Shown here piece by piece: positions 32,035 through 55,326 of a stretch of DNA of 64,000 nucleotides. The DNA is from Dehalococcoidia bacterium (GTDB lineage: Bacteria > Chloroflexota > Dehalococcoidia > GIF9 > AB-539-J10): assembly GCA_030610855.1 (NCBI GenBank), contig JAUWQY010000002.1:24082-88081 (forward strand). The letters run 5' to 3'. Positions within the stretch are counted from its first letter, which is position 1; the number at the start of each line of letters is the position of its first letter. Position numbers and translations under genes: made by a program. The notes below the pieces were generated by a model. That model was not told where the DNA came from. It saw only the letters and a program-made list of their open reading frames with translations, and searched no databases.

Positions 32035-32138
32035 ACAATGTGTGTTATTATCAATAAGTATTAGGAGAATATTTTTGTGTTTTTTTGTAGAATTGGTAGC
32101 AAAAGGTATTGATGAAGTCATACATTGTGTGTTATTAT
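32032..32138. repeat. 20-nt direct repeat (CATACA[A/T]TGTGTGTTATTAT) x2, 87 nt apart, spanning the HTH gene start and its upstream region
   Basis: Copies at 32032-32051 and 32119-32138 with a single mismatch; each contains an in-frame ATG on the minus strand. Confidence 0.6.
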
Positions 32139-32776
32139 AAATACAGAACAGGGAATGAGCAGGAGAATTGAAATGGAATTTTGGAAAGAAAAAGGACCGG
32201 CAATAGCGGAATCTGACACAGTTAAGGAAAACAAGCTGGGATGGCAAGTTCCCTCCCAATCGGGTACAAAGCCCCCTTGACGGGAGAGGATTAAGGTAAG
32301 GGTGATATCCCCCTCCCTCTAACTCCCTCGCACCGGGGGAGGGAGAAATTATGAGGAGTTTTGCAGTTAACTATGATTAGCGATACATGCATTAGCTTCG
32401 CTGCTTTCGTGCTGTTCTCAATTCCTCTACTATCCTGGGCAATATCTCACCCGTCTGTCCCTGAAGAAGGCAGTCTGATACACCTTCGTGGGTGAGTGGT
32501 GTAGGCTCTGCGTGTCTCTTGAAGCCCAAGCATTTCCTGCCAGTACGCCCCCCCCCTGGGGTCTTTCAGGAAAAGGTCGTGTCTTTGATAAGCCCTGGCC
32601 TCTGCCTCCTTGTTTGTGGTCCACACCCCTTTTGGTCCCCCCGACAAGTCGGGGTATGCCTGATTCAGTCGACATACCGGCCCCGCTCAGTGCAATGGCA
32701 TACCTGCTTTCCACCAAATCCTCTGCTCCCTGCCTGACCAGGCTTTCCGTTACTCACCCCACCATCACGGTCATCT

Positions 32777-40321: not shown

Positions 40322-40723
40322 ATGGCATCAAACAAGAGAAGGTCCAAGCGTGAGTCTATAATCAGATCCCTCGCAGAAAAGTGGTTCTCCGCTTCTGTGA
40401 AACTAGTAGATAGATATGCGCCGGATAGGCTGCTGCTCTTTGCCCTCAACTTCCTGGATAAGCGTGTGCCGAACAGGCTGATTACTTTCGCAAGCAACGC
40501 GGTCGAGAAACTGGTTCCTCGTAAGCTGCGCTCTACTGCTATTGCTGCCGCCGATGAGTATGTCCCTGACACCGTGGCGAATTCGAGAAAGACTTGCACT
40601 GTCATCGCCGCGGTAGGGAAGTATATCCCGGACGAGATAATACCCCCGGAGTCGGCAGAAACCTGGGAGAATCTCAAAACAAAACTCCATATTCCGAAAC
40701 TCATATCAAACAAGCAGAAGTGA
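40322..40723 (+). CDS. hypothetical small protein with degenerate ~17-residue repeats
   Basis: 133 aa; GGAG SD upstream. Repeated K(L/R)VP(D/N)RL..FA.NA.. units (KLVDRYAPDRLLLFALNFLD / KRVPNRLITFASNAVE / KLVPRKLRSTAIAAADE / YVPDTVANS.. / YIPDEII). Favoured over the overlapping antisense ORF at 40225..40755. Confidence 0.4.
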   Translation: MASNKRRSKRESIIRSLAEKWFSASVKLVDRYAPDRLLLFALNFLDKRVPNRLITFASNAVEKLVPRKLRSTAIAAADEYVPDTVANSRKTCTVIAAVGKYIPDEIIPPESAETWENLKTKLHIPKLISNKQK

Positions 40724-40795
40724 GCGCCTATAGTAGATGCAGGTGTTTTCGCCATAGCTCCTCACGATGTTGGTGAGGAAGAAGTGTGGTATTGA

Positions 40796-41845
40796 ATGCA
40801 GTACGAAAAGGTCTATCTGGAGTCGTTTGGTTATGAACTCCCTGAGCATGTCGTCACATCCTTGAGCCTGGAAGAAAGACTGGCCCCAATATACGACAAG
40901 TTGCATCTTTCCTACGGGCGCCTGGAATTGTCGACTGGAATCCGAGAACGGCGATTCTGGGATGATGATGTGACGCCCAGCCAGGCCAGTATCAGAGCGG
41001 CAGAAAAGGCCATCAACAAATCCGGGATCAACAAAGAGGATATCGGATGCCTGCTCCATACTTCTGTATCCCGCGATTTCCTGGAGCCGGCGACAGCTAC
41101 CGTGGTTCATGATTCTTTGGGACTCCCTCCCGCAGCCATGATTTTCGACATCTCCAATGCCTGTCTGGGTTTCATCAACGGCATGGTAACTCTGGCCAAT
41201 ATGATTGAGCTGGGTCAGGTAAAAGCAGGCGTTGTCGTTGGCTGTGAGAACAGCAAACGGCTTATTGACACAACCATCATTAAACTCTTGAGAGACCCTG
41301 ACATCACCAGAGCTAAGCTCAAACTCGCCTTTGCCACTCTAACTTTGGGGTCCGGAGCAGTGGCGGCGGTGCTAACCCACTCCTCCATGTCGCAAGACGG
41401 TCATAAGCTCCTTGGTGGCGTAACGCGCGCTGCTTCACAACATAATGGTCTTTGTCGTATAGAAGCCGATGCTTCTTTCCTCGACCTGCATGAGCTCCCG
41501 GATATGCGCACGGACCAAAAACGAATCCTGGAAAATGGACTGAGATTGGCGCCTGACACATGGGAGGCCATAAAACAAGAGCTTGAATGGAGAAACTCCG
41601 ACGTAGATAAGGTTTTTGCTCACCAGGTTAGCGCCTCGCATAGTAAGCTGTTATTCGAGGCTTTGGGGCTGGATACTGCAAGAGACTTCTCCACCCTGGA
41701 ATATCTGGGAAATGTTGGGTCGGTTTCCCTTCCCATTACCATGGCTATCGGAATTGACCAGGGTCGCCTTAACACTGGCGACAAAGTTGCTGCGCTCGGG
41801 ATTGGCAGCGGCCTGGTTTGTCTTATGCTGGGTCTGCAATGGTAG
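40796..41845 (+). CDS. 3-oxoacyl-ACP synthase III (FabH-like) family protein
   Basis: 349 aa; thiolase-fold KAS III pattern with the active-site Cys in the DISNACLGF context and a C-terminal GN(V/T)GS-like block. Confidence 0.85.
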   Translation: MQYEKVYLESFGYELPEHVVTSLSLEERLAPIYDKLHLSYGRLELSTGIRERRFWDDDVTPSQASIRAAEKAINKSGINKEDIGCLLHTSVSRDFLEPATATVVHDSLGLPPAAMIFDISNACLGFINGMVTLANMIELGQVKAGVVVGCENSKRLIDTTIIKLLRDPDITRAKLKLAFATLTLGSGAVAAVLTHSSMSQDGHKLLGGVTRAASQHNGLCRIEADASFLDLHELPDMRTDQKRILENGLRLAPDTWEAIKQELEWRNSDVDKVFAHQVSASHSKLLFEALGLDTARDFSTLEYLGNVGSVSLPITMAIGIDQGRLNTGDKVAALGIGSGLVCLMLGLQW

Positions 41846-41959
41846 CACAGGGAACGACCCCTGCGAGATGAGCTCAGGAGAACACACCTTCAGACTGTGA
41901 CGCAATTGGATTGCTCCGGGCCGCGCCCGTATCTACATTCTTGAGCGGAGTTCTACTCT

Positions 41960-43228
41960 ATGGTGGCAAAGAAGAGTGATGAGAGACGAATTGTAATAAC
42001 CGGGGTTGGCCTCACGGCGCCAAACGGAAATAACCTGACGGAATTTCGGCGGAGTCTCCTCGACGGCAAATCCGGGGTGCAGAAATTCGAGGTCCGCTAC
42101 ATGGGTGAGGTGCTGGCCGGTATATGTCACTTCGACCCGCTGAAGTATCAGAAGAAGAAGGAATTGCGGCGTGGGACGAGGGCAGGCTCTATCGCGATTT
42201 ACTGCGCCCAAGAAGCAATCGCTAACGCTAAGCTAGACCTTGCATGCCTCGACAAATCGAGGATCGGTGTTTACCTCGGGATTACTGAGCATGGCACCGT
42301 GGAGACCGAAAACGAAATCTATGAGATCAAGCAATTCGACTACGATGTGAAATACTGGTCTCACCATCATAATCCAAGGGTGGTAGCCAATAATCCCGCC
42401 GGTGAAGTCACCTTGAATATGGGCATTACTGGACCGCACTATACTCTGGGGGCCGCATGTGCCGGCGGCAACCTCGGGCTGATACAGGGCTTACAGATGC
42501 TGTTGCTGAACGAAGTCGATTTGGCTCTGGGTGGCGGGGTTTCGGAAAGTACCGCTTCCTTCGGTATTTTTGCTGGCTTCAGAAGTGAAGGGGCTCTGGC
42601 TTCCCATCCAAACCCTGAGAAGGCATGCCGTCCCTTTGACAAGGATCGGAATGGCGTGGTTGTTGCAGAAGGCGGCGGTATTTTTGTTCTGGAAAGACTG
42701 AGCGATGCGCAGAAAAGGGGAGCCAGGATCTACGGCGAAATCGTGGGCTATGCTATCAACTCGGATGCGTTGGACTTTATTTTGCCCAGCGCAGAAAGAC
42801 AGGTTGAGTGCATGAAGCTTTCTCTTAACAAAGCCGGCATATCTCCCGAAGATATCGATATCATCAATACCCACGGGACGGGCACTGCTGAAGGAGACCC
42901 TGTGGAGTGCCAGGCAATTAGGGAGGTCTTCGGCGAATATCCTCATGCTTATATGAACAACACCAAGAGCTTCATTGGTCACGCCATGGGTGCCGCCGGC
43001 GCTTTGGAACTGGCTGGTAACTTACCCTCTTTTGAGGACTATATCGTCCATCCGACGATCAATCTGGACCACCTGGATCCTGAGTGTAATCTCAACCATC
43101 TGGTTATCAATGAACCAAAGAGGATTGACAAGGTTGACTATATATTGAATAATTCCTTCGGAATGTTGGGCATCAATTCGGTTGTTATCGTAAAAAGATT
43201 TGAGCCACAAAACTGCAAGCATTCTTGA
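41960..43228 (+). CDS. beta-ketoacyl-ACP synthase (FabF/FabB-like KAS I/II)
   Basis: 422 aa; RRIVITGVG N-terminus; active Cys (GAACAGG) and the two His (HGTGT, GHAMGAAG) present. Confidence 0.9.
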   Translation: MVAKKSDERRIVITGVGLTAPNGNNLTEFRRSLLDGKSGVQKFEVRYMGEVLAGICHFDPLKYQKKKELRRGTRAGSIAIYCAQEAIANAKLDLACLDKSRIGVYLGITEHGTVETENEIYEIKQFDYDVKYWSHHHNPRVVANNPAGEVTLNMGITGPHYTLGAACAGGNLGLIQGLQMLLLNEVDLALGGGVSESTASFGIFAGFRSEGALASHPNPEKACRPFDKDRNGVVVAEGGGIFVLERLSDAQKRGARIYGEIVGYAINSDALDFILPSAERQVECMKLSLNKAGISPEDIDIINTHGTGTAEGDPVECQAIREVFGEYPHAYMNNTKSFIGHAMGAAGALELAGNLPSFEDYIVHPTINLDHLDPECNLNHLVINEPKRIDKVDYILNNSFGMLGINSVVIVKRFEPQNCKHS

Positions 43229-43248
43229 AATAGATAGATTGGGGGTAC

Positions 43249-43500
43249 ATGACCAAGGAACAAATTAGAGCCACGCTTCTCGAAATCATAGCCCAAATCA
43301 TACCGGACGAAGACCTGAGCAATCTGAAGGGTGACGTCGCGATACGAGAACAAGTGGAACTCGACTCAATGGACTTCTTAGATATCGTTATGGAGTTGCG
43401 AAAGCGCTTCGGTATCGAAGTACCCGAGAGTGACTACACAGAACTAGCCACCCTGGATGGCTCTGTAGCCTATCTGGAGCCACGGATGAAAGACCTCTAG
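43249..43500 (+). CDS. acyl carrier protein
   Basis: 83 aa; phosphopantetheine-attachment serine in LDSMDFLDIV (DSL-like). Confidence 0.85.
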   Translation: MTKEQIRATLLEIIAQIIPDEDLSNLKGDVAIREQVELDSMDFLDIVMELRKRFGIEVPESDYTELATLDGSVAYLEPRMKDL

Positions 43501-43596
43501 TCCAGAGCGCCAGCAAGCCAGGAACAAAGGCCTTTGTCGCATTCTACCCGACGATTGAAGGTTGAGCTAGCCCTCGGTTTCTAGAAGAGCCTGCCC

Positions 43597-44982
43597 ATGC
43601 ATTATGATGTTCTGATTATCGGCGCCGGAATGTCTGGTCTTGCCGCTGGCATCAGATTAGCCTACTACGACAAGAAGGTCTGCATCGTCGAAAAGCATTA
43701 CCGTGTCGGAGGACTCAACTCGTTCTACAGCTTACGAGGACATAAACTCGACGTCGGCCTCCATGCCATGACCAATTATGTACCCGGGGATGCTAAATCA
43801 AGGCCGTTGCCCAGGTTGCTGCGACAGCTCAAGCTAAAAGCTGAAGATTTCGCCCTCTGCCCGCAACGCATGTCAGTAATCAGATTTCCCGACAAGACCC
43901 TGAGGTTTAATAACGACTTCAACTTCTTCGTGCAAGAGGTCGTCGACAGCTTTCCAGGACAAGCTGACAACTTCCAAAAGCTGCTTAAGACTACTCTTGA
44001 ATATGATGAATTGAACCTGTATGCCCAACCGGTTTCGGCTCGTGAGGTAGTGAGTTCTGTTATTTCCGACCCGCTCCTCACCGACATGATTTTCTGCCCG
44101 CTCATGTTCTACGGGAATCCCCAGGAGAACGACATGGAGTTCGGGCAGTTTGTTATCATGTTCAAGAGTATCTTCTGCGAAGGATTTGCCCGACCTCAGG
44201 ACGGCGTGCGCCAGATCCTTGACGTGCTGGTGAACAAATACAGAGGTTACGGCGGCGAACTGAAGATGAGGTGCGCGGTAACAAGTCTCAAATGCGCCAA
44301 CGGCAAGGTTGCATCAATCCTGCTCGAGAACGGTGAAGTCCTTACCGCTGACAGGATACTCTCATCGGCCGGTTACGTTGAAACCATGCAGCTGCTAGCC
44401 GACTCTGATTCTTCGGCAGTCAATCATCCAGTGGGTCAACTCTCATTTGTAGAGTCTATTCTGATTCTAGACAAAGAACCTGCCGAAATGGGCTATAATA
44501 CGACAATCACCTTTTACAATGATTCGGATAGATTTGCTTATCGAAAACCCGCGGAACTCGTTGATGTTTCCAGTGGTGTTATCTGTTGCCCGAATAACTT
44601 CGAACTAGAACATCCCTTGCCGGAGGGCATGATCAGAATAACTAACCTGGCTAACTTCGATCTCTGGAACAGCTTGAGTGAAGAAGAGTACAAGACCTGG
44701 AAAGCTGCCTGGCTGGAAACCACGCTCAAACAGGTGGTGAGATTCGTGCCCGATTTCCGTGACTCCATTATCTTCACCGATGTCTTCACTCCGAAAACAA
44801 TCCGCAGATTCACCGGCCATATAAATGGCGCGGTCTACGGGACACCGGACAAGATCAAGACGGGCGAGACTCAACTAGAGAACCTGTTCATCTGCGGAAC
44901 CGACCAGGGATTCCTCGGAATCGTTGGAGCAATGCTTAGCGGTATCTCGATGGCAAATCTTCACGTTTTGCAGAAGACCTAG
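43597..44982 (+). CDS. FAD-dependent oxidoreductase, phytoene desaturase (CrtI)-like family
   Basis: 461 aa; N-terminal dinucleotide fold DVLIIGAGMSGLAAG ... VGGL; CrtI/amine-oxidase-like length. Confidence 0.8.
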   Translation: MHYDVLIIGAGMSGLAAGIRLAYYDKKVCIVEKHYRVGGLNSFYSLRGHKLDVGLHAMTNYVPGDAKSRPLPRLLRQLKLKAEDFALCPQRMSVIRFPDKTLRFNNDFNFFVQEVVDSFPGQADNFQKLLKTTLEYDELNLYAQPVSAREVVSSVISDPLLTDMIFCPLMFYGNPQENDMEFGQFVIMFKSIFCEGFARPQDGVRQILDVLVNKYRGYGGELKMRCAVTSLKCANGKVASILLENGEVLTADRILSSAGYVETMQLLADSDSSAVNHPVGQLSFVESILILDKEPAEMGYNTTITFYNDSDRFAYRKPAELVDVSSGVICCPNNFELEHPLPEGMIRITNLANFDLWNSLSEEEYKTWKAAWLETTLKQVVRFVPDFRDSIIFTDVFTPKTIRRFTGHINGAVYGTPDKIKTGETQLENLFICGTDQGFLGIVGAMLSGISMANLHVLQKT

Positions 44983-45091
44983 TCAGAATCCTGATGATAA
45001 GTACGAGCAACAGGAAAGCTCCTCCTAAATCCCCCTCTTAGGATAAGAGGGGCAAGGGGAGTTATGGGACTCCGATGGCAAAGGAAGAAGC

Positions 45092-46495
45092 ATGACCCAC
45101 GATTGGTTGAAGGAGACAAGGTCGGAATATGATGTCGTTGTCATTGGCGGCGGATTGGCGGGGTTGACCTGTGCCAATATGCTGGCCAGAGGAGGACACT
45201 CGGTCTTGCTTCTTGAGCAGCACCACAACCTTGGCGGATTGGCCACCTGGTTCAATAGAAAGGGACATATCTTTGATATCGCCCTGCACGGATTCCCGGT
45301 CGGCATGATCAAGACCTGTCGTAAATACTGGAATCCCGAAATCGCCGGCATGATTGTCCAGCTCAAAGGGATCAGATTCGACAACCCGCAGTTCTCCTTT
45401 ACCACAACCTATGACAGGGAGGATTTCACGCGCATCTTGCAGGAGCGGTTCAAAATACCTCAACACAGCATTGAAGGCTTTTTCGATACAGCGAGAAACA
45501 TGAACTTCTACGATGACCAGAGCATGACCACGAGAGAGCTTTTTGAGAGGTTCTTTCCCGGCCGCGACGACGTTCACCGCATGTTGATGGAACCTATCAC
45601 CTATGCCAACGGATCGACCCTGGACGATCCCGCCATAAGCTACGGCATTGTCTTTTCCAACTTCATGAGCAAAGGCGTCTGTACCGTTCAGGGGGGGACG
45701 GATCAGTTCATCGGAAGAATGCGGGACGAGCTTCTAAGAAACGGCGTTGATATTCGAACCAGGTGCCTGGCGGAAAGAATCGTCGTCGAAGACGGCAGAG
45801 CCGCCGGCGTAATAGCGAATGGAAAGAGGATCAAGAGCAAGACTGTTGTCTCCAACGGCAATCTGTTATCAACCATCCACGAACTGGTGGGAGACGAGCA
45901 CTTCTCTGAGAGCTTCGTCGCAGAGGCGAGGAAGGTGCGCCTCAACAACAGCAGTTGCCAGGTCTACATGGGGATCAGGAAGGGCGAGAAGATTGACTAC
46001 ATAGGAGATTTGCTTTTCACCTCGGCGGCGGGGAAATTCAATTCTCAAGAGCTTTGCAGCAAGAACACCACCAGCAGGACGTTTTCAGTTTACTATCCGC
46101 AGACCCGGCCCGGCTCCGATATGTACTCCATCGTTGCCTCCTCCAACGCCAATTACGACGACTGGGCAAATCTGTCTGAGGAAGAGTATCGCACCTCTAA
46201 GGAAGAATTGACGGAGAGAGTGCTCGACGCTCTGGAGAAATACGTTCCTCGCATTCGAGACAAGGTAGATTACCTGGAAGCTGCCACTCCGAAGACATTT
46301 CAAAGGTATACGCTCCATTTGAGCGGTGCCTCTTTCGGCACCAAGTTTGAAGGGCTAAAGGTCAGCATGGGTCTTCCCAAAGAGCTACCGGGACTTTTTC
46401 ATACCGGCTCTGTGGGGATTATTATGTCAGGTTGGCTGGGGGCAGCTAACTATGGAGTGATCGTCGCCAATGATGTAGATAAATTCCTTTCATAA
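45092..46495 (+). CDS. FAD-dependent oxidoreductase, phytoene desaturase (CrtI)-like family (second paralogue)
   Basis: 467 aa; [15 protein letters not shown] ... LGGL dinucleotide motif; paralogous to the preceding gene. Confidence 0.8.
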
Positions 46496-46505
46496 GGCGC
46501 AGGAA

Positions 46506-47246
46506 ATGTATGATTTCAGAGGACAGACTATCATCGTCACCGGCGGAACCAGAGGGATAGGCAAGGGGATTTCCGAGGGCTTCCTGAAGTCAGGAGCTAA
46601 GGTTACCGCTACCTATTCGACAAATGAAGCTGCGGCGGCACAATTTCAACAGGACAACAGCCAGTTCGCAGAAATGATTGATATCCGGAAGCTTGATGTG
46701 ACCAAATATGAAGAGGTGGAAGAGTTTTTCAAGTACATGGAAACGAGATATGGGAGCTTTGAAGTCCTGGTGAACAACGCCGGTATCCGAAAGGACTCGG
46801 TCCTGGCGATGATGAAAGAATCGGACTGGCATGACGTGATGAATGTCAACCTCGCGGGAGCCTTCTACATGTGCAAATTTGCCGTTATGAGCCTGATGCG
46901 CAGACGATACGGACGGATTATCAACGTAAGCTCTGTCATGGAAAGATACGCGTTTGAAGGCCAGGCCAACTATGCAGCTTCAAAGGCAGGCCTCGTTGCA
47001 TTGACCAAATCACTGTCCAAGGAGGTCGCCACCCGGGGTATTACGGTTAACTGCGTCTCGCCGGGATTCATTACCACCGAGTTGATCCAGGACCTTCCCG
47101 ATAAACTGCGTGAAGCTTACCTGGCCCGGATTCCCCTGAAGAGATTCGGAAGCACTGAAGAAGTGGCTGCCTGCGTTCTTTTCCTCGCTTCCAGAGAAGC
47201 GTCCTATGTCACCGGTTCTACTCTTGAGGTAGCGGGAGGATTATGA
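46506..47246 (+). CDS. SDR family 3-oxoacyl-ACP reductase (FabG-like)
   Basis: 246 aa; TGGTRGIGKG cofactor motif, NNAG, catalytic YxxxK (YAASK). Confidence 0.85.
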   Translation: MYDFRGQTIIVTGGTRGIGKGISEGFLKSGAKVTATYSTNEAAAAQFQQDNSQFAEMIDIRKLDVTKYEEVEEFFKYMETRYGSFEVLVNNAGIRKDSVLAMMKESDWHDVMNVNLAGAFYMCKFAVMSLMRRRYGRIINVSSVMERYAFEGQANYAASKAGLVALTKSLSKEVATRGITVNCVSPGFITTELIQDLPDKLREAYLARIPLKRFGSTEEVAACVLFLASREASYVTGSTLEVAGGL

Positions 47247-47247
47247 G

Positions 47248-47673
47248 ATGGAGGAGATTCTAAACGCCATACCCCATCGTCCACCGTTCCTGTTTGTCGA
47301 CAGGATCGTGGAGTTGAGCGGAACAAAGATCAGGACAACGAAAGAGATAAGGCCCGATGAACCGGTCTTCGAAGGACATTATCCCGGACAACCAATCATG
47401 CCCGGGGCGCTCATCTGTGAATCCATTTTTCAAACAGGCGCAGTCCTGCTCTCCAAGATGATGGGCGGCGTCGGCGAAGGCGTTCCCGTCTTGACGCGCA
47501 TCAATAACGCCAAGTTCAAGAGCATCGTCAAGCCCGGCAGCACTCTGGATATCGAGGCAGAACTGATGGAAAAGGTCAGCAATGCCTACTACATGAAGGG
47601 CAAAGCCTCGGTCGCGGGCAGGACATCGGTCACCGTCGAATTTACAGTCACCTTGACCAGCCAGGCACCCTGA
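47248..47673 (+). CDS. hotdog-fold 3-hydroxyacyl-ACP dehydratase (FabZ/FabA-like)
   Basis: 141 aa; IPHRPPFLFVDRIVE ... FEGHYPGQPIMPG matches the FabZ signature. Confidence 0.75.
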   Translation: MEEILNAIPHRPPFLFVDRIVELSGTKIRTTKEIRPDEPVFEGHYPGQPIMPGALICESIFQTGAVLLSKMMGGVGEGVPVLTRINNAKFKSIVKPGSTLDIEAELMEKVSNAYYMKGKASVAGRTSVTVEFTVTLTSQAP

Positions 47674-47837
47674 CATGTAGTTAGGCTGTTCAGGAATGTA
47701 GTTGCCCAATTCATTGGGCGGTTCGTGCCTGATAAATCGGGCAACGACAAGAATGCCCGAATCTGAGCCGGAAAGCGAGATGATCTAGTTCAGATAGATG
47801 GGTGATACTTCATGTGCTTGTAATACTGGGTAATAAC

Positions 47838-47990
47838 CTTCCGTGTCATTGCGAGCCCCAACTTGTCGGGGCGTGGCAATCTCATTGCGAAGCCGGAGCC
47901 TGCTATAGTTGGACGGATGAACCTCGCTTAGAGATTGCGGAGCCTGTTCCGAACCGCAGGTGAGGAATCTCGCTCCTCGCAATGACAAGA
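47838..47990. repeat. inverted-repeat element (TGTCATTGCGAG ... CTCGCAATGACA) with internal CATTGCGAAG copy, in the 395-nt gap before the FabI-like gene
   Basis: Near-perfect 12-nt inverted repeat arms about 135 nt apart, plus a third CATTGCGA copy; includes the palindromic motif CCCCAACTTGTCGGGG. Confidence 0.5.
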
Positions 47991-48068
47991 AAGAAGTGTC
48001 TCTAATCACGTGAACGAGTACACGAAATTGAACGGTCCAATATTGGAAGGTATAATAAGGAGCATTAT

Positions 48069-48869
48069 ATGGATTTCCTAGACATTGTGGATAAGACCTT
48101 CCTTGTTTTCGGGGTGGCGAACAAGAAGAGCGTCGCCTTCTCCGTCGGAGAGGTTCTCTCCGAGGCAGGAGCAGATGTAGTCTACAGTGTTCAATCAAGA
48201 GAAGGCAAAGAGAGTGTTTCCAAAATCCTTCCCGGCACCGATATCTTTGTATGTGATGTCGAGCGAGAGCCCGAGATCAAGAAGCTGGCGGAAGATATCG
48301 CAGAAAAATATGCCAGAATTCATGGCATCGTTCACTCCATAGCCTTTGCCAACTACGAAGAAGGACTCAAGCCGTTTCACGAAACTAAGAAGAAGAACTT
48401 CCTGCAGTCAGTTGATGTCTCCTGTTATTCCTTAATCGCTATTGCTAATGCCTTCAAGGACCTGCTGGATGAGAGAGCATCTGTGGTCACCATATCCATC
48501 TCAACCACCAAGATGGCAGCGGAGCCCTACGGTTTCATGGGTCCAGTGAAGGCCGCCCTCGACTCAACGATATGCTTCCTGGCTAAGTCCTTCAGTTCCT
48601 TCTCCCAAATCCGGTTTAACTCCGTGAACGCCGGGCTGTTGAAAACCTCGGCATCCGCAGGGATACCGGGTTACCTGGACTACTATCTCTTTGCCGAGCA
48701 ATTGACCCTGCGCAAGAAAGCTCTCAAGACCAAGGAAGTGGCCAACACAGTGGCGTTTCTCTTGAGCCCGCGCTCGAGCGCCATTAATGCCCAGGGCATC
48801 GTTGTCGACGCTGGAATGTCGGTCAACTACTTTGACAAAGACATCATCAAGAAGGCAATAAGGATCTAG
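48069..48869 (+). CDS. enoyl-ACP reductase (FabI-like, SDR superfamily)
   Basis: 266 aa; FabI-like glycine-poor N-terminus ([14 protein letters not shown]), HSIAFA, and a Y-x6-K-like catalytic region. Confidence 0.7.
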
Positions 48870-48876
48870 CAAACCG

Positions 48877-49467
48877 ATGATTCTGTTTCCGGTCGTTATG
48901 CCGGTCATCGAAGCCGTACATGACCTCTCGGGGAAAGAGCAAGTAGCTCGTCTAAGCCGGCTTGCTCGTGAGGCACTAAAAGTGAGTGCTGAAAAAAGCC
49001 AGGTCAAGCTGGGAGAATTGCTCAAAGACGAGATTGGGAGCCCGTGCCCGGTTTCGGGCCATTACTGGTCTCTCTCCCATAAACCTGAGTGCGTGGCGGC
49101 GGTGGTGAGCAGAGATAGGATCGGGATCGATGTCGAAGAGATGAAACCCCGAACTGAGCCGCTCTTCTCCTATGTGGCGAGTGATGACGAATGGGGACTG
49201 AAGGAGAAGTCCTGGGACACATTTTTCCGCTACTGGACGGCCAAGGAAGCGACCTTGAAGGTTATCGGAATCGGTATCGGCGGCCTAAAGACCTGCCGCA
49301 TAGTCTCAGTCCCGGACGAGAGTCATATTGTTCTGGATTATAAGGGAGATTCCTTCCTGGTCGAGCAATTGAGGTACAAGAAACACATTGTTGCCGTCGT
49401 CAAGGGCGACAACGAAATCGAATGGGTAGTCCTCTCCGAATCCCAAATCCCAAGCACGAAATCCTAA
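48877..49467 (+). CDS. 4'-phosphopantetheinyl transferase (Sfp/EntD type)
   Basis: 196 aa; (I/V)GIDVEE and W(T/S)AKEA(T/Y)LK motifs. Confidence 0.8.
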   Translation: MILFPVVMPVIEAVHDLSGKEQVARLSRLAREALKVSAEKSQVKLGELLKDEIGSPCPVSGHYWSLSHKPECVAAVVSRDRIGIDVEEMKPRTEPLFSYVASDDEWGLKEKSWDTFFRYWTAKEATLKVIGIGIGGLKTCRIVSVPDESHIVLDYKGDSFLVEQLRYKKHIVAVVKGDNEIEWVVLSESQIPSTKS

Positions 49468-49570
49468 ACAGATCCTCGACTTCAGATTCCAAACCGTTTG
49501 GTCCCTTGGGTTTTGGGCCTCAGTGCTTTGATATTGTCTAGAATTTCGTACTTCGTGCCTGGGATTTTCC

Positions 49571-50959
49571 TCAGAAGTGGCTCCTGTCGAACTCCTTTGA
49601 CCGGTATCGCCCCCATCCGGGAAACACCTCGCGGTAGATCCGGAGCCTTATTCCGATTAGCTTTAGAGTCCTCAGAAGCAGCATCCTGAACATCCTGGGT
49701 TTACCGAGAAGCGCCTTCATCAAAAGGAGGAGGGTTCTCGTTAGTGTAGGCGGGCATCCTTCTATACTGACGACTGACAGCTGACAGCTATCAGGTGACT
49801 CCCTGAAGTGTGCAGGAATCGTTTCCTTCACCTTCTTGTGTAGACCTTTGTTACTTCTGATGGCACAGTCGCCGTAAAGGACGATCTTTGTAGGGGAGGG
49901 TCTTGTACCTTCCCTTTTTCCGTTTTCCGCCCTCAGTTCCAGCCCATAATACAGCTCCACAGAACCAAAATCCATTCCAGGGTTGTCCTTGCCCAGTATC
50001 GATAGAGCCAGGGCAAGCGTGGCACCACAGGCAGAACAAAGAGTTTGCCCCGGATGAGGGGCGGAAATCCCTGTTGTTCTTGACGGGCTCAGCAGTTCTC
50101 TGTCGGGTTCAAATCGCCACTCAAGGTGCTCCTTCAGAGATTCTACATCTTCTCCTTCAACCTGAATCCTACTGATATCAAAGGAACGACCATGCCTCCG
50201 GGCATATTCCTTCAGATAGTCAACTTGCGCAGGATCAATCCCCAGGATTGTCGCTCCCACAACATCGCTCTCGAATACGTCCGGACTGGCTATAATCAAA
50301 TCCTTGCGGTAAGCCGTACCGGCAAGAGTTTCTGGCCCCTTCTCCAGCATATATATTCCATCGATGATTACCAGGTCGCTCTTGACAGCTTCGTTCAATA
50401 GGCAAATCAAAGCGTCCAGTCGCTTACTAGTATGAAACCTCTTCCTCGAGTCCGGGCTGAGACAGCCCTTCAAATTCTTGAAACCCAGGGAGACCTTTGT
50501 TTGAAAGTGAGTCTTGAGCACAGGAATGTTGATGAGAAAGCCTGTCTCCAGGGCTGTTCGAACGATCTTGACCTTCACCCCTCCCAGATCAAGCTCGCGA
50601 AACGGACCCTGGTTGAAATCAACCATCTTAATCCCGTACTTCCCCGCCACCTTGTCAATGCCTGTACCCCTAAAACCCCGTTTCGTATATGGCTTGAGCT
50701 CATCGAATATATTGATGATGGAGCCTTCACCGATAGAAATATCTCTACAGCCATGTTCCAGCAGTAACTGTACGACCCCGTCTATGATCTTTGTGGTGGT
50801 TACCATCCCATAAGGAGGCATTATCTTGTGCCGGAAACAATTGTTGGGTTTTATGAGAACTCTGGCATTCCTGTCCAGCTTCTCAAATCCATGACACAGT
50901 TCGACAGCTTTACGAAGTGAGTCCAGGGAGCCATCGAACTTCACCAGCGATACTGTCAT
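49571..50959 (-). CDS. DUF362 domain protein
   Basis: 462 aa; VLIKPNNCF ... IGEGS pattern characteristic of DUF362. Confidence 0.6.
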   Translation of the reverse strand: MTVSLVKFDGSLDSLRKAVELCHGFEKLDRNARVLIKPNNCFRHKIMPPYGMVTTTKIIDGVVQLLLEHGCRDISIGEGSIINIFDELKPYTKRGFRGTGIDKVAGKYGIKMVDFNQGPFRELDLGGVKVKIVRTALETGFLINIPVLKTHFQTKVSLGFKNLKGCLSPDSRKRFHTSKRLDALICLLNEAVKSDLVIIDGIYMLEKGPETLAGTAYRKDLIIASPDVFESDVVGATILGIDPAQVDYLKEYARRHGRSFDISRIQVEGEDVESLKEHLEWRFEPDRELLSPSRTTGISAPHPGQTLCSACGATLALALSILGKDNPGMDFGSVELYYGLELRAENGKREGTRPSPTKIVLYGDCAIRSNKGLHKKVKETIPAHFRESPDSCQLSVVSIEGCPPTLTRTLLLLMKALLGKPRMFRMLLLRTLKLIGIRLRIYREVFPGWGRYRSKEFDRSHF

Positions 50960-52365
50960 GCCTCCTGCGCACCAACCTGGTAGTTCTTAAGCTCTTCAAC
51001 ATAGAGAGCCAGAAACATTCGAGCTTTCTCTTCAGAGAAGTGGGCAGGCCTATAAGTGAGGGAGAAATTCAGATTCTTATTGTACGTACCAGCGGCGATG
51101 CTCAGTCCCATTGGACTCACTACCGGTGCGGAGCCGGTCACATTGACTATTCTAGCATTGCCTATGGTGCTCACGGCCGGTTCCGCAGAACCTGGTTTGG
51201 GCCAGATAAAGCCCAAATTGGTAATAAGAATAGTGTCGACATATGTCCGTGTAACAATCAAGAACCAGCACATTCCTCTCATAACCACCAGAGGAAAGCG
51301 AGAGCAGAAGTAGAAGAAATAGACCAGGGAGAAGGCTATTCTGTTCTTGGTCGCATTTATGGTATCTCCTCTTACTTTTCTCAGTAGCTCCGCCGCATCC
51401 GTCCTATCTTTGGGCGTAGTGGGCAAGGAAAACCAGGATGCCTGGTTGGAAACAACATAGCGAAAGCCCTTCGGACTTATGTTCACCGGAGCCATTACGC
51501 GGATCCTCTTGCTGACCTTCCCATGCATGCTATTCCATTTCTCCACCATTCTGTAACAGGCCGCCAGGAGAAGATCGTTTAGCGTAACCCCAGCCAACTT
51601 TGCTTTGAGCTGGATTTGGGTCAGCTCCCGGGGGTTTATGATTTCGAAACAGAAATGGAGTTCCCTAGAGTGCCCGGATCTATCATGGAAAACCCTTGTC
51701 GGGGGAGGGAGCGCGCATAGGACAAAACGATGGAAGAGACTGAGAATCACCTTCCTGTAGTAGTGTTGCACCTTTGATCTCTGGCTGTGGGCGAATTCCA
51801 GCAGTTCGTCTCCCTTACGATTTACGCGGATATCGCCAGCATTTCCCGGGGCCGACGCTTTGGCCCCACCCCCCACAGAAAGCTGGTTGTTATAACTCTC
51901 GATAACCTTCCTTACGAAGAGAAGGGCACGGAGTCCATCTGCTGATGAGTGATGAAAAGTGAAAACCAACAGGTATTCCGTGTCGTTCTTCCTTAACAGG
52001 AGAACCCTCACCGGGAACTCCTTTCTGATATTCAAGGGTCGGTTCATCCACGACGAAAGATAGGTTTCATAGTCGGTGTCTTCCAGTTCACCCTGGTCTG
52101 CCATAGTGAGGACTCCCGTGCCGGTGCCCTCCTGTATCTGGCGGAAAGGCCTGAGGTTTCTCCTGCGCAGAATCGTTCTCATCACAGGATGAGCCCCCTG
52201 CGCCGAGACAATTGCCTGATTCAGCCTGGCGGCATCTACTTCCCCCTGAACGCTTAGAATCGTATGAATAAGCATGGGCTCGTTCATGCCATCAAGAGCC
52301 AACAGGCATTTATCAACGCAGTTCAGCGGGATGAAACCGGGGGAACTCTCCATCTCTCTTCGCAT
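50956..52365 (-). CDS. condensation-domain / WS-DGAT-like acyltransferase (HHxxxDG motif)
   Basis: 469 aa; FTFHHSSADG catalytic motif typical of NRPS condensation, WS/DGAT and PapA5-type acyltransferases. Confidence 0.65.
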   Translation of the reverse strand: MRREMESSPGFIPLNCVDKCLLALDGMNEPMLIHTILSVQGEVDAARLNQAIVSAQGAHPVMRTILRRRNLRPFRQIQEGTGTGVLTMADQGELEDTDYETYLSSWMNRPLNIRKEFPVRVLLLRKNDTEYLLVFTFHHSSADGLRALLFVRKVIESYNNQLSVGGGAKASAPGNAGDIRVNRKGDELLEFAHSQRSKVQHYYRKVILSLFHRFVLCALPPPTRVFHDRSGHSRELHFCFEIINPRELTQIQLKAKLAGVTLNDLLLAACYRMVEKWNSMHGKVSKRIRVMAPVNISPKGFRYVVSNQASWFSLPTTPKDRTDAAELLRKVRGDTINATKNRIAFSLVYFFYFCSRFPLVVMRGMCWFLIVTRTYVDTILITNLGFIWPKPGSAEPAVSTIGNARIVNVTGSAPVVSPMGLSIAAGTYNKNLNFSLTYRPAHFSEEKARMFLALYVEELKNYQVGAQEA

Positions 52366-52550
52366 AATAGTCCGGAACCGGGCCGGGCGAGGCAGTTTGT
52401 CAAGTTCAGACGGTTGTAACGATGCCCTGCCAGTTCAGTGTCCCGAAAATCCTGGTCGTCCATAGTATATCACGCCCCTGCTGTGAAGCGGTTTGGAGGG
52501 AAGACTTACCCGTTGCCATAAGTCGGGTGTGCTGGAGAGTGAACCCGGAG

Positions 52551-53336
52551 CTAAGAGCAAGCCGGCGGGTGGGGTAAGGGGGGACGTTGACCGGCAACGT
52601 ACTGGCGGAGCCTTTCAGCCATCTCAGGGTCGGCAAGACTGCTCCGGTGAATCTCCGCTTCCAGCCTGATTCCTTCCGCTAGCGGCAGCGACAGGCCCTC
52701 ATAAACGGCCCGCCGGTCGTTCTTCAGGCTGACTCGGGGGTATTCTGCTATGGCCTCAGCAAGTTCCAGGGCCCGCGGCAGAGCCTGTCCATCGGGGACG
52801 ACCTCCTGTACCAGCCCCATCTGAAGTGCGCGGGCAGCGTCAATCACGATGCCCGTCTCTATGAGATAGAGCGCATTGCCGAGGCCGACGATTCTGGGGA
52901 GGCGCTGCGTGCCACCATCGATGAGCGGAACACCCCAACGGCGGGCAGGGTTGCCAAAACTGGCGTTGCGAGAGGCGATGCGGAAATCGCACCAGCAGGC
53001 CAACTCCAGACCACCGGCTAAGCAGTAGCCGTTAACAACGGCTATGGTTGGTTTTTCCAGGTCGGTAACACAACTGATGCCCATCGGCCCGGACTCATCC
53101 GCGCCGGGACGTGCAATGAGGCCTTCAACGTGTTTCAGATCTGCTCCGGAACAGAAGGAAACATCGCCTGCTCCCGTCAGGACAAGCACCTCAAGATCCC
53201 GGGCTTTGCGGAACGATTGGACAGCCTCGAAGAGGAGTTGCGCCGTTTCAGCATCGACGCAGTTATGCACCTGCGGACGATTTATGGTTACTACAATTGA
53301 GCGGCCTTTCAGTTCAGTCTCCACTTTGGCCATCAT
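52551..53336 (-). CDS. enoyl-CoA hydratase/isomerase (crotonase) family protein
   Basis: 261 aa; crotonase fold signature (LTGAGDVSFCSGADL, IAVVNGYCLAGG). Confidence 0.85.
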   Translation of the reverse strand: MMAKVETELKGRSIVVTINRPQVHNCVDAETAQLLFEAVQSFRKARDLEVLVLTGAGDVSFCSGADLKHVEGLIARPGADESGPMGISCVTDLEKPTIAVVNGYCLAGGLELACWCDFRIASRNASFGNPARRWGVPLIDGGTQRLPRIVGLGNALYLIETGIVIDAARALQMGLVQEVVPDGQALPRALELAEAIAEYPRVSLKNDRRAVYEGLSLPLAEGIRLEAEIHRSSLADPEMAERLRQYVAGQRPPLPHPPACS

Positions 53337-53412: not shown

Positions 53413-53754
53413 CTACGCACGATCACTCCTCACGTACCCGTAAGCTATAAGGAATATCGCCAGGTAGTAAGTAGTCATAATAACATAGCTTGACGCCGGC
53501 ACCGAGATGGTGAATTTGTCGATGGCGATGAGTGAGTCCGAGAGGATGAAAGAGAGAGCACAGAACAGGAAAGCTACAGACAAGAGCTTGCCCGTGAGCC
53601 CGCTTACTGCTGTCAGTGCCAGGATGGACAGAGTTATCGCCGGTATCGCCTTAACTGCGAAGTGACCCGGATAAGGTGTGACCATCTGAGAGACAACGAA
53701 GATGACGGCGAATGCAAGAGCAGTATAGAGCAGGCTTCTCTGTACAGTAGTCAT
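53413..53754 (-). CDS. small hydrophobic membrane protein (hypothetical)
   Basis: 113 aa; 3-4 predicted TM helices. Confidence 0.4.
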   Translation of the reverse strand: MTTVQRSLLYTALAFAVIFVVSQMVTPYPGHFAVKAIPAITLSILALTAVSGLTGKLLSVAFLFCALSFILSDSLIAIDKFTISVPASSYVIMTTYYLAIFLIAYGYVRSDRA

Positions 53755-54084
53755 TGTGTTTTCCTCCTGATATCGACAGCAGCCGTTCCTCTATGCAGAC
53801 AGAAGATTAGCACCAGATTGCCTTGTATTCCTGTCTTTGTTCTACAGTAGTTCAGCCTTGGGGAAACCCGGCCGATAGTATATCAGGACCCCGCACTGTC
53901 AAGCGCCTGTCCAGAAGTCTTGAAGCCTTTGATCGGACTGGTGAACGTTCCTATCATTCCTTCAAGTAACTGGTCTGCTATCATAAAGGACTTGCTTTCG
54001 TATTCAATTCCGCGATGGACTGTGCCTGTCCTCTGTTGATGACTGCGCAGGTCTATAATAGAATATGGGGTAATCGGCCGAGCA

Positions 54085-55326
54085 ATGATGAATCCATTCT
54101 TCTTTGTCATTCTTATCGCCCTGCTCATTGAGCACGCGATAGGAGTGATTGCCAATCTCTTTAATCTCAAATCCCTGAGCACAAAACCGCCTCCCGCTCT
54201 TGAAGGGGTGTACCAATCGGAGGAGTATCGTAAGTCTCAAGAATACCTTCGCGCTAATACCCGTTTTGATTTCGTAACCAGTACATTCGACCTGGTCGTT
54301 TTGCTTTCCTTCTGGTTTACTGGCGGCTTCAACTATCTTGACCAGGCAGTCAGGTCCTGGGGCTTTGTTCCTATCCTGCACGGATTGTTATACATTGGCA
54401 TCTTGGTGCTAGGCTACAGCCTGACTAAGCTGCCCTTCAGCATCTATCGAACGTTTGTAATTGAGGAGCGATTCGGCTTCAACAGGACTAACCCGCGCAC
54501 TTTCGCGTTGGACAGGATCAAGGGCCTGGTCCTTGCAGCATCGATTGGTGGCCCCCTGCTAAGCGGTATTCTGGCCCTGTTTGAGTATGCGGGATACCAT
54601 GCCTGGATCTACTGCTGGATTGCCGTCATCCTCTTTTCGCTGATTTTGCAGTATGTGGCTCCGACATGGATTATGCCGCTCTTCAACAAGTTCACCCCCC
54701 TGGAACCAGGCGAGTTGAGAGAGGCTATTCTCAACTATTCCCGCTCGGTCGGTTTCCCGGTCAAAAACGTCTTCGTCATGGACGGCTCCAAGCGTTCCAG
54801 TAAATCCAATGCCTTCTTTACCGGATTTGGCCGTAACAAGCGGATTGCCCTATTTGATACCTTGATCAAGAAGCACACGGTGCCCGAACTGATAGCCGTG
54901 CTTGCCCATGAAATCGGTCATCACAAGAAGAAGCATATACTACAGGGCACAATAATCAGCATTCTTCACACGGGGGTGCTCTTCTTCGTACTATCTATCT
55001 TGCTGGGCAGCCCCGGGCTCTACGACGCATTCTATATGGAGCAGCAATCCATTTACAGCGGGATTCTCTTCTTCGGCTTGCTCTACACCCCTCTGGAAAT
55101 GGTGCTTTCGATCATGATGCACGCGCTGTCGCGTAGGAACGAGTACGAAGCTGACCGCTTCGCAGCCGACACTACCCAGCATCCACAGCATCTGGTAGAA
55201 GCGCTGAAGAAACTACATGCGGGCAACCTGTCAAACCTGGTGCCCCATCCCTTTTACGTTTTTCTCAACTACTCGCATCCGCCACTGCTGCAGCGCATGC
55301 GTGCCATTCTGCGATATGAAGCCTAG
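54085..55326 (+). CDS. M48 family zinc metalloprotease (Ste24/CAAX prenyl protease-like)
   Basis: 413 aa; multi-TM N-terminal half; HEIGHHKKKH zinc motif; downstream Glu-containing block. Confidence 0.85.
   Translation: MMNPFFFVILIALLIEHAIGVIANLFNLKSLSTKPPPALEGVYQSEEYRKSQEYLRANTRFDFVTSTFDLVVLLSFWFTGGFNYLDQAVRSWGFVPILHGLLYIGILVLGYSLTKLPFSIYRTFVIEERFGFNRTNPRTFALDRIKGLVLAASIGGPLLSGILALFEYAGYHAWIYCWIAVILFSLILQYVAPTWIMPLFNKFTPLEPGELREAILNYSRSVGFPVKNVFVMDGSKRSSKSNAFFTGFGRNKRIALFDTLIKKHTVPELIAVLAHEIGHHKKKHILQGTIISILHTGVLFFVLSILLGSPGLYDAFYMEQQSIYSGILFFGLLYTPLEMVLSIMMHALSRRNEYEADRFAADTTQHPQHLVEALKKLHAGNLSNLVPHPFYVFLNYSHPPLLQRMRAILRYEA

Follow-up and report, generated by a model that had tools for sequence, protein, structure and literature searches.

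Here, we describe a chromosomal lipid-biosynthesis cluster of a Dehalococcoidia bacterium (phylum Chloroflexota, GenBank assembly GCA_030610855.1), which lies on contig JAUWQY010000002.1 in a stretch of 64,000 nucleotides (positions 24,082 to 88,081 of the forward strand). This stretch is called the window below, and its own numbering is used throughout. The cluster is real and strongly conserved, and it is built round a seven-gene module of discrete fatty-acid synthase (FAS) enzymes and two flavoproteins of the CrtI family, named Crt1 and Crt2. Its first gene encodes an OleA-type thiolase, and other phyla have this module joined to the oleABCD genes of long-chain olefin synthesis, so that the cluster can be described as an ole-linked secondary acyl synthase. 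In the reading that we favour, to which we would give a probability of about 45%, a dedicated synthase working on an acyl carrier protein (ACP) would build a flavoenzyme-modified, probably unsaturated acyl chain, and the OleA-type enzyme would condense two such chains head-to-head.

The closest homologues, which are 84-99% identical and number thousands in metagenomes, are named Dehalococcoidia or Chloroflexota, and the host is probably an abundant bacterium of the SAR202 type. SAR202 is one of the most abundant lineages of the deep ocean. The module occurs in very abundant ocean lineages that are uncultured or slow-growing, namely SAR202, Nitrospina and marine Planctomycetota, and has no assigned product. 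Our search of the literature gave no paper in which the module, or its link to ole genes, is described. The DNA that was read comprises the window, which is 64 kb of this genome, and, in relatives, 10 kb to either side. The related loci that were compared carry L-numbers, of which L003 to L013 are loci of the Dehalococcoidia type.

The first gene encodes an OleA-type thiolase

The first-pass annotation of the window had taken the first gene of the cluster for a FabH-like β-ketoacyl-ACP synthase III (KAS III). The comparison with known structures and families contradicts this. In a search of the Protein Data Bank (PDB), the best matches of the protein were OleA structures from Xanthomonas campestris (3ROW, 4KU5, 5VXD and others). 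The match to 3ROW runs over the full length with 40% identity and E = 3e-70, while FabH structures gave values of 1e-13 to 1e-23. Alignment to 3ROW shows that the equivalents of Cys143, His285 and Asn315 are kept, together with that of the OleA-specific base Glu117, which lies in the segment SRDFLEP. On NCBIfam, the protein scored 448 bits with model NF006720 (cut-off 285), against 111-131 bits with the FabH models. The OleA protein of locus L027, which is encoded in a complete oleABCD operon, has the same best NCBIfam family and is 54% identical to the thiolase of the window. For comparison, Escherichia coli FabH and X. campestris OleA are 27% identical, and active OleA enzymes are known down to 26-29% identity (PMC7064751).

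The module is conserved across phyla and is fused to ole genes

An alignment of Crt2 was scanned against 185,579 species genomes, which gave at least 594 matches, and the best 80 loci were taken. Conservation of the module was followed by tblastn over 83 loci and by clustering of open reading frame (ORF) families over 38 fetched loci. Both show a core module composed of a β-ketoacyl-ACP synthase (KS), the ACP, Crt1, Crt2, FabG, FabZ and a FabI-like enzyme, of which FabG is sometimes missing and whose order is invariant. In the 38 fetched loci, Crt2 was recovered 37 times, FabI 29, Crt1 26, FabZ 23, FabG 21, ACP 20 and KS 19 times, always in the same order, and Crt1 adjoins Crt2 in 26 of them. 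The grouping of the genes is far beyond chance, this order being shared by dozens of independent contigs that come from several phyla. The first-pass annotation had named two outcomes that would refute its reading, one of them being that the cluster genes are not co-conserved in relatives; the cluster is co-conserved and passes this check.

Crt2 is the most conserved protein of the module. Among the best 80 loci, those of Dehalococcoidia have Crt2 at 73-85% identity to that of the window; two of them are labelled Deltaproteobacteria, and L019 is an outlier at 67%. The other groups in this set, with Crt2 at 63-71%, are Nitrospinota, Phycisphaerae, Pirellulales, Planctomycetaceae, a metagenome-assembled genome (MAG) of Nitrospirales and another MAG labelled Deltaproteobacteria. 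The Planctomycetaceae include Gimesia and two complete Planctomicrobium genomes. Between the window and the other phyla, identities are 64-71% for KS (59% for L081, of Planctomycetaceae), 54-65% for ACP, 47-59% for Crt1 and 56-73% for FabI. Neighbour-joining trees of Crt2 and of KS group largely by phylum, which suggests old acquisitions followed by vertical descent. The hosts are mostly marine, and several are deep-sea or cold-seep MAGs.

The link to ole genes is most complete in L027, a Nitrospirales MAG, in which oleABCD, KS, ACP, Crt1, Crt2, FabG, FabZ and FabI follow each other on one strand and the stop codon of oleD overlaps the start of the KS gene. The best named NCBIfam matches in this locus are the olefin beta-lactone synthetase (609 bits) and the 2-alkyl-3-oxoalkanoate reductase OleD (392 bits), neither of which reaches its equivalog cut-off, and its OleB is haloalkane-dehalogenase-like. 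In total, oleD is located directly upstream of KS in seven loci, and in six of these oleC is present too: L025 and L041 (Phycisphaerae), L027, L069 (Pirellulales), and L072 and L081 (Planctomycetaceae). L050 (Planctomycetota) has oleD only. Furthermore, L050, L056 and L069 have an oleA gene just downstream, on the other strand. The first-pass annotation, which had argued for a specialised cluster, missed the key clue that is given by the OleA-type first gene and by the fusion of the module to oleABCD in other phyla.

Genes for OleC have been reported in MAGs of Nitrospina, Planctomycetes and Deltaproteobacteria (PMC10176705), and the hydrocarbon n-C31:9 in Pirellulales and Gemmataceae (PMC6995999, PMC7534041). 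Desulfotalea psychrophila makes C31:8 and C31:9, and it has type II FAS clusters with adjacent phytoene-dehydrogenase-like genes and no pfa genes that were found (PMC2649909). The taxa that bear the module are thus those reported with ole genes or n-C31:9, which counts for an OleA-linked reading.

Several loci depart from this arrangement. L027 has a DUF4357-domain gene (8992-9849) between Crt1 and Crt2, in an otherwise tight operon, which looks like a foreign insertion. Six loci of Planctomycetaceae (L040, L054, L060, L064, L067 and L071) have solitary Crt2 orthologues, at 64-66% identity, without the module and with unrelated neighbours; no pfa-like or polyketide synthase (PKS) partner stands beside Crt2 in L040, L054, L064 and L071. 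This could mean that the partners are encoded at another site, or that Crt2 has a separate function. In Dehalococcoidia, L089 carries a reductase of the 3-beta-hydroxysteroid dehydrogenase (3-beta-HSD) type (8358-9332, minus strand), 35% identical to OleD, beside a stand-alone KAS III, and L019 carries a more distant one (4999-5988, minus strand; 28% over the N-terminal half) after the phosphopantetheinyl transferase gene. These two reductases may be OleD-like partners; the window has no homologue of them.

The enzymes of the synthase and the two flavoproteins

By sequence, the cluster holds a complete cycle of ketosynthase, ketoreductase, dehydratase and enoyl reductase (KS/KR/DH/ER), with a private ACP and a private 4'-phosphopantetheinyl transferase (PPTase). 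The Cys-His-His triad of the KS is intact (ACAGG, HGTGT, GHAMG), and this protein scored 321 bits on the fabF model TIGR03150 (cut-off 494). The ACP falls under all AcpP cut-offs (best 43 bits, cut-off 66), and the best FabI model gave the FabI-like enzyme 183 bits (cut-off 362). The position of these three proteins below the NCBIfam housekeeping cut-offs fits a specialised system. FabG reached 250 bits with NF009466 (cut-off 222) and 288 bits with TIGR01830 (cut-off 298). FabZ reached 122 bits with NF000582 (cut-off 113), against only 35-38 bits with the FabA models. The PPTase is found at the same position in loci of Dehalococcoidia, of Phycisphaerae and other Planctomycetota, and in a few loci of other phyla.

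Crt1 and Crt2, with 24% identity between them, are assigned to the CrtI family at the superfamily level only. For both, the top NCBIfam match is carotenoid isomerase. The best matches of Crt1 are partial (carot_isom 88 bits, cut-off 587; crtI_fam 60 bits, cut-off 238), and with crtI_fam (TIGR02734) Crt2 reached 90 bits, so that both proteins miss this family cut-off. The solved structures nearest to the Crt2 family profile are CrtD (4REP, 4e-23) and CrtI (4DGK, 8e-20).

The locus in Dehalococcoidia

All twelve genes that had been named in the first-pass annotation were recovered by the ORF map and by Pfam and NCBIfam searches, with the same coordinates and strands (Table 1). The assignments of a FabF-like KS, an own ACP, FabG-, FabZ- and FabI-like enzymes and a Sfp-type PPTase agree with the family matches and the motifs, and the two paralogous phytoene-desaturase-like flavoproteins are confirmed at the superfamily level. 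Likewise, the DUF362 protein, the HHxxxDG acyltransferase and the crotonase are located on the opposite strand, as had been described. The absence of fabD from the cluster was also correctly noted, and it extends to the entire window, the rest of which has no fabD, other FAS gene or ole gene. The guanine-cytosine (GC) content of the cluster, 0.51, equals that of its flanks.

Table 1 Features of the cluster in the window and of the ole-linked locus L027.
Locus	Feature	Coordinates	Strand	Basis or remark
Window	Conserved 133-aa ORF	40322..40723	+	Directly upstream of the OleA-type gene; no Pfam family
Window	OleA-type thiolase (head-to-head, non-decarboxylative Claisen condensing)	40796..41845	+	PDB, NCBIfam, residue alignment
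Window	Elongating β-ketoacyl-ACP synthase (FabF/FabB class)	41960..43228	+	Pfam ketoacyl-synt N and C domains
Window	Dedicated acyl carrier protein	43249..43500	+	PF00550; LDSMD serine motif
Window	Crt1, FAD-dependent amine-oxidase/CrtI-CrtISO-superfamily flavoprotein	43597..44982	+	Pfam Amino_oxidase, NAD_binding_8
Window	Crt2, second paralogous CrtI/CrtISO-superfamily flavoprotein	45092..46495	+	Pfam
Window	3-oxoacyl-ACP reductase FabG	46506..47246	+	Pfam adh_short_C2
Window	3-hydroxyacyl-ACP dehydratase, FabZ type	47248..47673	+	PF07977; HYPGQP and ICES motifs
Window	Non-coding insertion between fabZ and fabI	47674..48068		395 nt; sequence, inverted-repeat search
Window	FabI-like enoyl-ACP reductase, divergent short-chain dehydrogenase/reductase	48069..48869	+	Pfam adh_short_C2; Tyr-x6-Lys (YGFMGPVK)
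Window	Sfp/HetI-type 4'-phosphopantetheinyl transferase	48877..49467	+	PF01648; weak HetI and AusB matches
Window	DUF362 protein	49571..50959	-	PF04015; conserved C-terminal Cys motif CSACG...C...C
Window	Stand-alone condensation-domain/WS-DGAT-like acyltransferase	50956..52365	-	PF00668, 68.5 bits (cut-off 30.6); FTFHHSSADG
Window	Crotonase/enoyl-CoA hydratase	52551..53336	-	PF00378; neighbour, no conserved cluster member
L027	oleA	815-1966	+	
L027	oleB	1973-2848	+	Alpha/beta-hydrolase
L027	oleC	ends 4515	+	AMP-ligase
L027	oleD	4512-5504	+	3-beta-HSD-type reductase
L027	KS	5501-6733	+	
L027	ACP, Crt1, DUF4357, Crt2, FabG, FabZ, FabI		+	In this order after KS

The cluster has a fixed position beside rpsU and yqeY, and it is 79-92% conserved among relatives, which is like or above the housekeeping gene yqeY. 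In L003, a 692-kb contig with 84% identity, the order is rpsU/yqeY, the 133-aa ORF, thiolase, KS, ACP, Crt1, Crt2, FabG, FabZ, FabI and PPTase, followed by DUF362 and the condensation-domain protein, and then by a SRPBCC gene where the window has the crotonase. The conserved unit therefore spans 40322 to 52365. The crotonase, which had been counted as a member of the cluster, is a mere neighbour: it has no homologue at that position in any related locus, L003-L008 and L012 among them, and in L003 and L012 the place is taken by a SRPBCC (Polyketide_cyc2) gene. Three features are found in Dehalococcoidia loci only, which are the OleA-type gene directly before KS, the 133-aa repeat protein, and the convergent pair of condensation-domain and DUF362 genes.

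The 133-aa ORF belongs to the cluster unit in Dehalococcoidia and had been missed in the first-pass annotation. It stands upstream of the OleA-type gene, at 48-76% identity, in L003, L005-L009, L011 and L013. The protein, which has no Pfam match, is composed of about five degenerate repeats of the N-terminal strand motif of KAS III (..V/I-G-K-Y-V/I-P-D/E.., for example ..GKYIPDEI..), and it aligns (E = 3e-11) with the N-terminal extension and the start of a Dehalococcoidia KAS III. A second, more FabH-like KAS III in Dehalococcoidia has this repeat too, as an N-terminal extension of about 90 residues; its gene lies beside the cluster in L011 (8711-10009, minus strand). Because related Dehalococcoidia carry this separate, more FabH-like KAS III, the OleA-type enzyme is not needed as initiator. 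In the Dehalococcoidia contexts that were examined, the extended KAS III is in no fab operon. In L084-L087 (about 10001-15600), it is repeatedly convergent with a gene for a BcrAD/BadFG-DUF2229 'CoA enzyme activase' of about 1,413 aa, and a gene of the same kind (1,438 aa) is located just downstream of the cluster in L008.

Three Dehalococcoidia loci, L009, L010 and L013, have a tandem duplication, in which OleA-KS-ACP is followed by the 133-aa ORF (in L009 and L013), OleA, KS, Crt1, Crt2 and the subsequent genes. The two OleA paralogues recall LstA/LstB and NltA/NltB, which reportedly act as heterodimers in beta-lactone pathways.

The DUF362 gene and the acyltransferase gene, whose end and start overlap by 4 nt (the start being that of DUF362), co-occur in L003, L004, L006, L007 and L012. 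In L012, the pair is located on the same strand directly after fabI and a SRPBCC gene. The HHxxxDG motif of the acyltransferase is intact. Its match to the wax ester synthase/diacylglycerol acyltransferase (WS/DGAT) model TIGR02946 is weak (53 bits, cut-off 310), so that assignment at the subfamily level fails, and a sequence search against the PDB gave only marginal matches to non-ribosomal peptide synthetases (NRPS). In the DUF362 protein, the cysteines of the C-terminal motif are invariant. A sequence search of this protein against the PDB gave nothing. With its AlphaFold2 model, which is poor (predicted local distance difference test, pLDDT, of 54), the sole significant Foldseek match was 7S91, a racemase of the LarA family (E = 1.4e-4, template modelling score 0.30), and the match to 9Q3K is weaker (E = 0.03, probability 0.94). 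The protein may have a LarA-like fold, which we treat as a lead only.

Between fabZ and fabI, the spacer is 395 nt in the window and 30 nt in L003. The gap, which is absent from this relative, is an insertion. It holds an element of about 156 bp that is bounded by 18-nt inverted repeats, CTTCCGTGTCATTGCGAG (47838-47855) and CTCGCAATGACAAGAAAG (47976-47993), and a second, internal palindrome. Rfam gave no RNA family in the window, the insertion included. A sigma-70-like site, TTGAAC-17-TATAAT, lies just 5' of fabI (48028-48056); promoter and terminator scans were at chance level.

Other parts of the window have features of their own. The region from about 26000 to 32300, probably an acquired island, has a low GC content (0.41-0.47, against 0.51-0.53 elsewhere). 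Its genes include two of type I restriction-modification, for an HsdS-like protein (28908-29906) and an N6 methylase (29903-31792), and one that resembles a proteasome subunit gene (27675-28424). Just outside the cluster, a YhhN-family (lysoplasmalogenase-like) ORF is found at 53413-53754 and 53883-54182, both on the minus strand. It covers only positions 81-181 of the 182 positions of the profile, and the gene may be split or its start mis-called. Lipid genes for a beta-type acyl-CoA carboxylase carboxyltransferase, a biotin-carrying carboxylase subunit and a PlsC-type acyltransferase are located at 1462-5359 and 6440-7090, and none of the three is linked to the cluster in relatives.

Proposed pathway and alternative explanations

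In the favoured reading, the Sfp-type PPTase would, by homology, convert the dedicated ACP to its holo form. The KS, FabG, FabZ and FabI-like enzymes, whose motifs are intact, would run iterative C2 elongation on this ACP, with malonyl units loaded by a FabD encoded elsewhere. Crt1 and Crt2 would introduce or reposition double bonds, through either desaturation adjacent to a double bond already present or a flavin-dependent cis/trans or allylic isomerisation; the chemistry of the family and the invariant place of the two proteins inside the module suggest that the ACP-bound chain is their substrate. The OleA-type thiolase would then join two acyl chains head-to-head, without decarboxylation, to give a 2-alkyl-3-keto acid. 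We infer this step from the 40% identity to X. campestris OleA, from the four catalytic residues that are kept, and from the fusion of oleABCD to the module elsewhere. In the other phyla, OleD, OleC and OleB would turn the condensation product into a long-chain olefin. Because no oleBCD genes are nearby in SAR202-type loci, the keto acid there might, speculatively, have one of two fates. It would either lose CO2 to give a long-chain ketone, decarboxylation being the known fate of OleA products (PMC7064751), or be reduced, after which the HHxxxDG acyltransferase, partnered by the DUF362 protein, would transfer it to an acceptor. The place of the acyltransferase and DUF362 genes after fabI on the same strand in L012 counts for the favoured reading.

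Several observations weigh against it. We know of no CrtI-type enzyme that has been shown to act on acyl-ACP. Anammox homologues were assayed for phytoene desaturation only, with a negative result (PMC4790861). The AlphaFold2 model of Crt2 has a pLDDT of 38, from an alignment of 22 sequences that are all at least 83% identical, and the model of the DUF362 protein is poor (pLDDT 54). With the L027 proteins as tblastn queries, oleB, oleC and oleD were found neither in the window nor within 10 kb of the cluster in SAR202-type loci, and the OleA of the window is therefore assigned without the flanking ole genes that define a 'high-confidence' OleA (PMC7064751). The Nitrospinota loci have the module by itself, among the housekeeping genes uppS, cdsA, dxr and ispF, and the surrounding DNA that was read has no ole genes. 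No version of the module has a known product. Finally, the housekeeping-level scores of FabG and FabZ, the presence of fabD in L009, and the synteny and conservation would fit a primary FAS equally well.

Such a primary FAS is the main alternative, which we hold to be less likely than the favoured reading. The cluster would be the main, possibly the only, type II FAS of SAR202-type Dehalococcoidia, with Crt1 and Crt2 built in. The OleA-type enzyme, the separate KAS III, or both, would prime, the KS, FabG, FabZ and FabI-like enzymes would elongate, and Crt1 and Crt2 would make needed unsaturated chains, in analogy to FabX or FabM, for example as precursors of 10-methyl-branched acids. FabZ and FabG do reach NCBIfam housekeeping cut-offs, and L009 has a canonical fabD (TIGR00128, 331 bits, cut-off 261) directly after the PPTase gene. 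The more FabH-like KAS III is found beside the cluster in L011 and elsewhere never in a separate fab operon, and no other FAS gene or fab operon was seen in the Dehalococcoidia DNA examined, that is, the window and the loci of relatives. These three points make it look more likely that the genes are the only FAS genes of the organism, which is the second outcome that would refute the first-pass reading. The fixed locus by rpsU/yqeY, the conservation at or above the level of yqeY, and the GC content equal to that of the flanks point the same way. About 75% of the fatty acids of cultured SAR202 are of the 10-methyl type, and the known route to these needs monounsaturated precursors (PMC10444878). 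However, a methyl group at C10 in both C16 and C18 acids would imply delta-9 precursors, made by a desaturase that counts from the carboxyl end and not by an in-line isomerase. The KS, ACP and FabI-like proteins are far below the housekeeping cut-offs, the PPTase is of the Sfp type and not of the AcpS type, the first gene is OleA-type with the OleA-specific Glu117, and the same module is fused to oleABCD elsewhere. Moreover, the ACP family is shared (at 54-65%) with the diderm Planctomycetota and Nitrospinota, as is the KS family, and these phyla would be expected to have an ordinary AcpP-based FAS too. The 10-methyl acids were rejected as the direct product, as the cluster has no methyltransferase and as, to our knowledge, neither Nitrospina nor non-anammox Planctomycetes are reported to make them. 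The earlier proposal of a specialised lipid in place of core fatty-acid synthesis is thus plausible, given the own ACP and PPTase and the sub-cut-off KS, ACP and FabI-like scores, and unproven.

A narrower form of the favoured reading, which we think improbable, is that the module is a dissociated ('type II') polyunsaturated-acyl synthase, in which Crt1 and Crt2 take the role that FabA-type isomerase domains have in Pfa synthases. It would supply chains of the 16:4 type, from which OleA, alone or with OleBCD, would make polyunsaturated ketones or C31 polyenes. Pfa with Ole is the established C31:9 route in Shewanella (reviewed in PMC4882568 and PMC6463001), and the module sits next to oleABCD. 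Rattray et al. proposed FASII and phytoene-desaturase-like genes as a novel route to polyunsaturated fatty acids (PUFA) in D. psychrophila (PMC2649909), and n-C31:9 is common in Planctomycetes, including Pirellulales (PMC6995999). The carotenoid-isomerase matches of both Crt proteins and the marine, in part deep-sea or cold-seep, hosts are in line with this. However, there is no chemistry in its support, pfa-like type I genes are present in other C31:9 producers such as Geobacter and Gemmata (PMC3098273), identity of the anammox proteins to Crt1 and Crt2 is only 26-28%, and no PUFA was reported among the fatty-acid methyl esters of cultured SAR202 (PMC10444878). Taken one step further, and as a conjecture against which the odds are still long, the module could be an unrecognised dissociated PUFA-acyl synthase that feeds OleA and the missing source of C31 polyenes in Planctomycetota, Nitrospinota and Desulfotalea-type bacteria without pfa. 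In SAR202, the OleA-only version, together with the condensation-domain acyltransferase, would then lead to products that escape present-day lipid surveys, either long-chain polyunsaturated ketones or esters of branched hydroxy acids. Membership of a known class of secondary lipids, such as ladderanes, aryl polyenes, flexirubins or dialkylresorcinols, or of a carotenoid pathway, is very improbable. FAS-like genes beside phytoene-desaturase-like genes superficially resemble anammox clusters (PMC2649909), FabG has a sub-threshold match to flexirubin FlxB (237 bits, cut-off 340), and the thiolase has a weak match to DarB. The features that define these classes, several of which had been suggested for comparison in the first-pass annotation, fail: for ladderanes, no radical S-adenosylmethionine (SAM), B12 or SAM-methylase gene is in the cluster, and orthology of Kuste3336 and Kuste3607 to Crt1 and Crt2 is rejected at 26% and 28% identity; for aryl polyenes, there is a single full-triad KS with no chain-length factor (CLF) partner, and an enoyl reductase is present; for dialkylresorcinols, DarB gave 26 bits (cut-off 550) and StlD/DarB 41 bits (cut-off 450). 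With the aryl-polyene, dialkylresorcinol, flexirubin and cispentacin models alike, scores are far below the cut-offs. For carotenoids, crtI_fam reaches only 60-90 bits of 238, and no crtB, crtE or other carotenoid gene is in the window region.

The repeated fusion to oleABCD gives a testable idea about the 'phytoene-desaturase-like' genes that have been unexplained in FAS clusters since 2009, and about how bacteria that lack Pfa synthases come to have polyunsaturated long-chain hydrocarbons. Should Crt1 and Crt2 act on acyl-ACPs, they would represent new double-bond enzymology and a new marine source of biogenic hydrocarbons or ketones. If the cluster is a primary FAS instead, an OleA-type enzyme and two flavoenzymes would be built into the core lipid synthesis of a cell with about 75% 10-methyl-branched fatty acids.

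Comparison with known systems

Among the nearest known systems is oleABCD of Xanthomonas, Shewanella and Micrococcus (3ROW, 4KU5), with which the cluster shares an OleA-type enzyme (40% identity, with Cys143, Glu117, His285 and Asn315), and in other phyla the seven-gene module is contiguous with bona fide oleA, oleB, oleC and oleD. In the window, however, oleB, oleC and oleD are lacking and a condensation-domain acyltransferase and DUF362 are in their place. Furthermore, the OleA gene is part of an operon for a synthase that is ACP-based, while the OleA enzymes characterised so far draw on acyl-CoAs of general metabolism.

The cluster resembles the pfaABCDE genes with ole of Shewanella, Photobacterium and Geobacter bemidjiensis in its own carrier protein, its Sfp-type PPTase (an analogue of PfaE), the linkage to ole genes and the marine hosts. 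It differs in that Pfa synthases have multidomain PfaA and PfaC, tandem ACPs, KS/CLF and a FabA-type dehydratase, whereas all proteins of the window cluster are single-domain and the dehydratase is of the FabZ type. The PfaA model gave 94 bits (cut-off 1010), and Pfa systems lack flavoproteins of the CrtI/CrtISO family.

The type II FAS clusters of Kuenenia stuttgartiensis and D. psychrophila also have a FabF-like KS, an ACP and FabZ beside flavoproteins of the amine-oxidase family. For these flavoproteins, which in D. psychrophila are the adjacent pair DP2405 and DP2406, a role in acyl-chain desaturation has so far been a proposal only (Rattray et al. 2009; Javidpour et al. 2016). Unlike the window cluster, the anammox clusters have radical SAM enzymes, SAM methylases and non-canonical KS paralogues. 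With housekeeping type II FAS (fabH-fabD-fabG-acpP-fabF, fabZ, fabI), the cluster shares the full KS/KR/DH/ER set with intact motifs, but it has an OleA-type enzyme in the initiator position, a Sfp-type PPTase, and two flavoproteins between the ACP and fabG genes.

Crt1 and Crt2 share the flavin adenine dinucleotide (FAD) Rossmann motif and the amine-oxidase fold family with CrtI, CrtD and CrtISO (4DGK, 4REP). Their scores are far under the cut-offs of these families, however, no carotenoid genes are near, and the substrate is presumably an ACP-bound fatty-acyl chain. UfaD and BfaA are fatty-acyl enzymes of a similar type. Finally, the acyltransferase is like the stand-alone condensation-domain, WS/DGAT and PapA5-type enzymes in its intact HHxxxDG motif, in its Condensation domain that scores above the cut-off, and in standing alone by a lipid synthase, but it has no NRPS/PKS partner and is instead paired and translationally coupled with the DUF362 protein.

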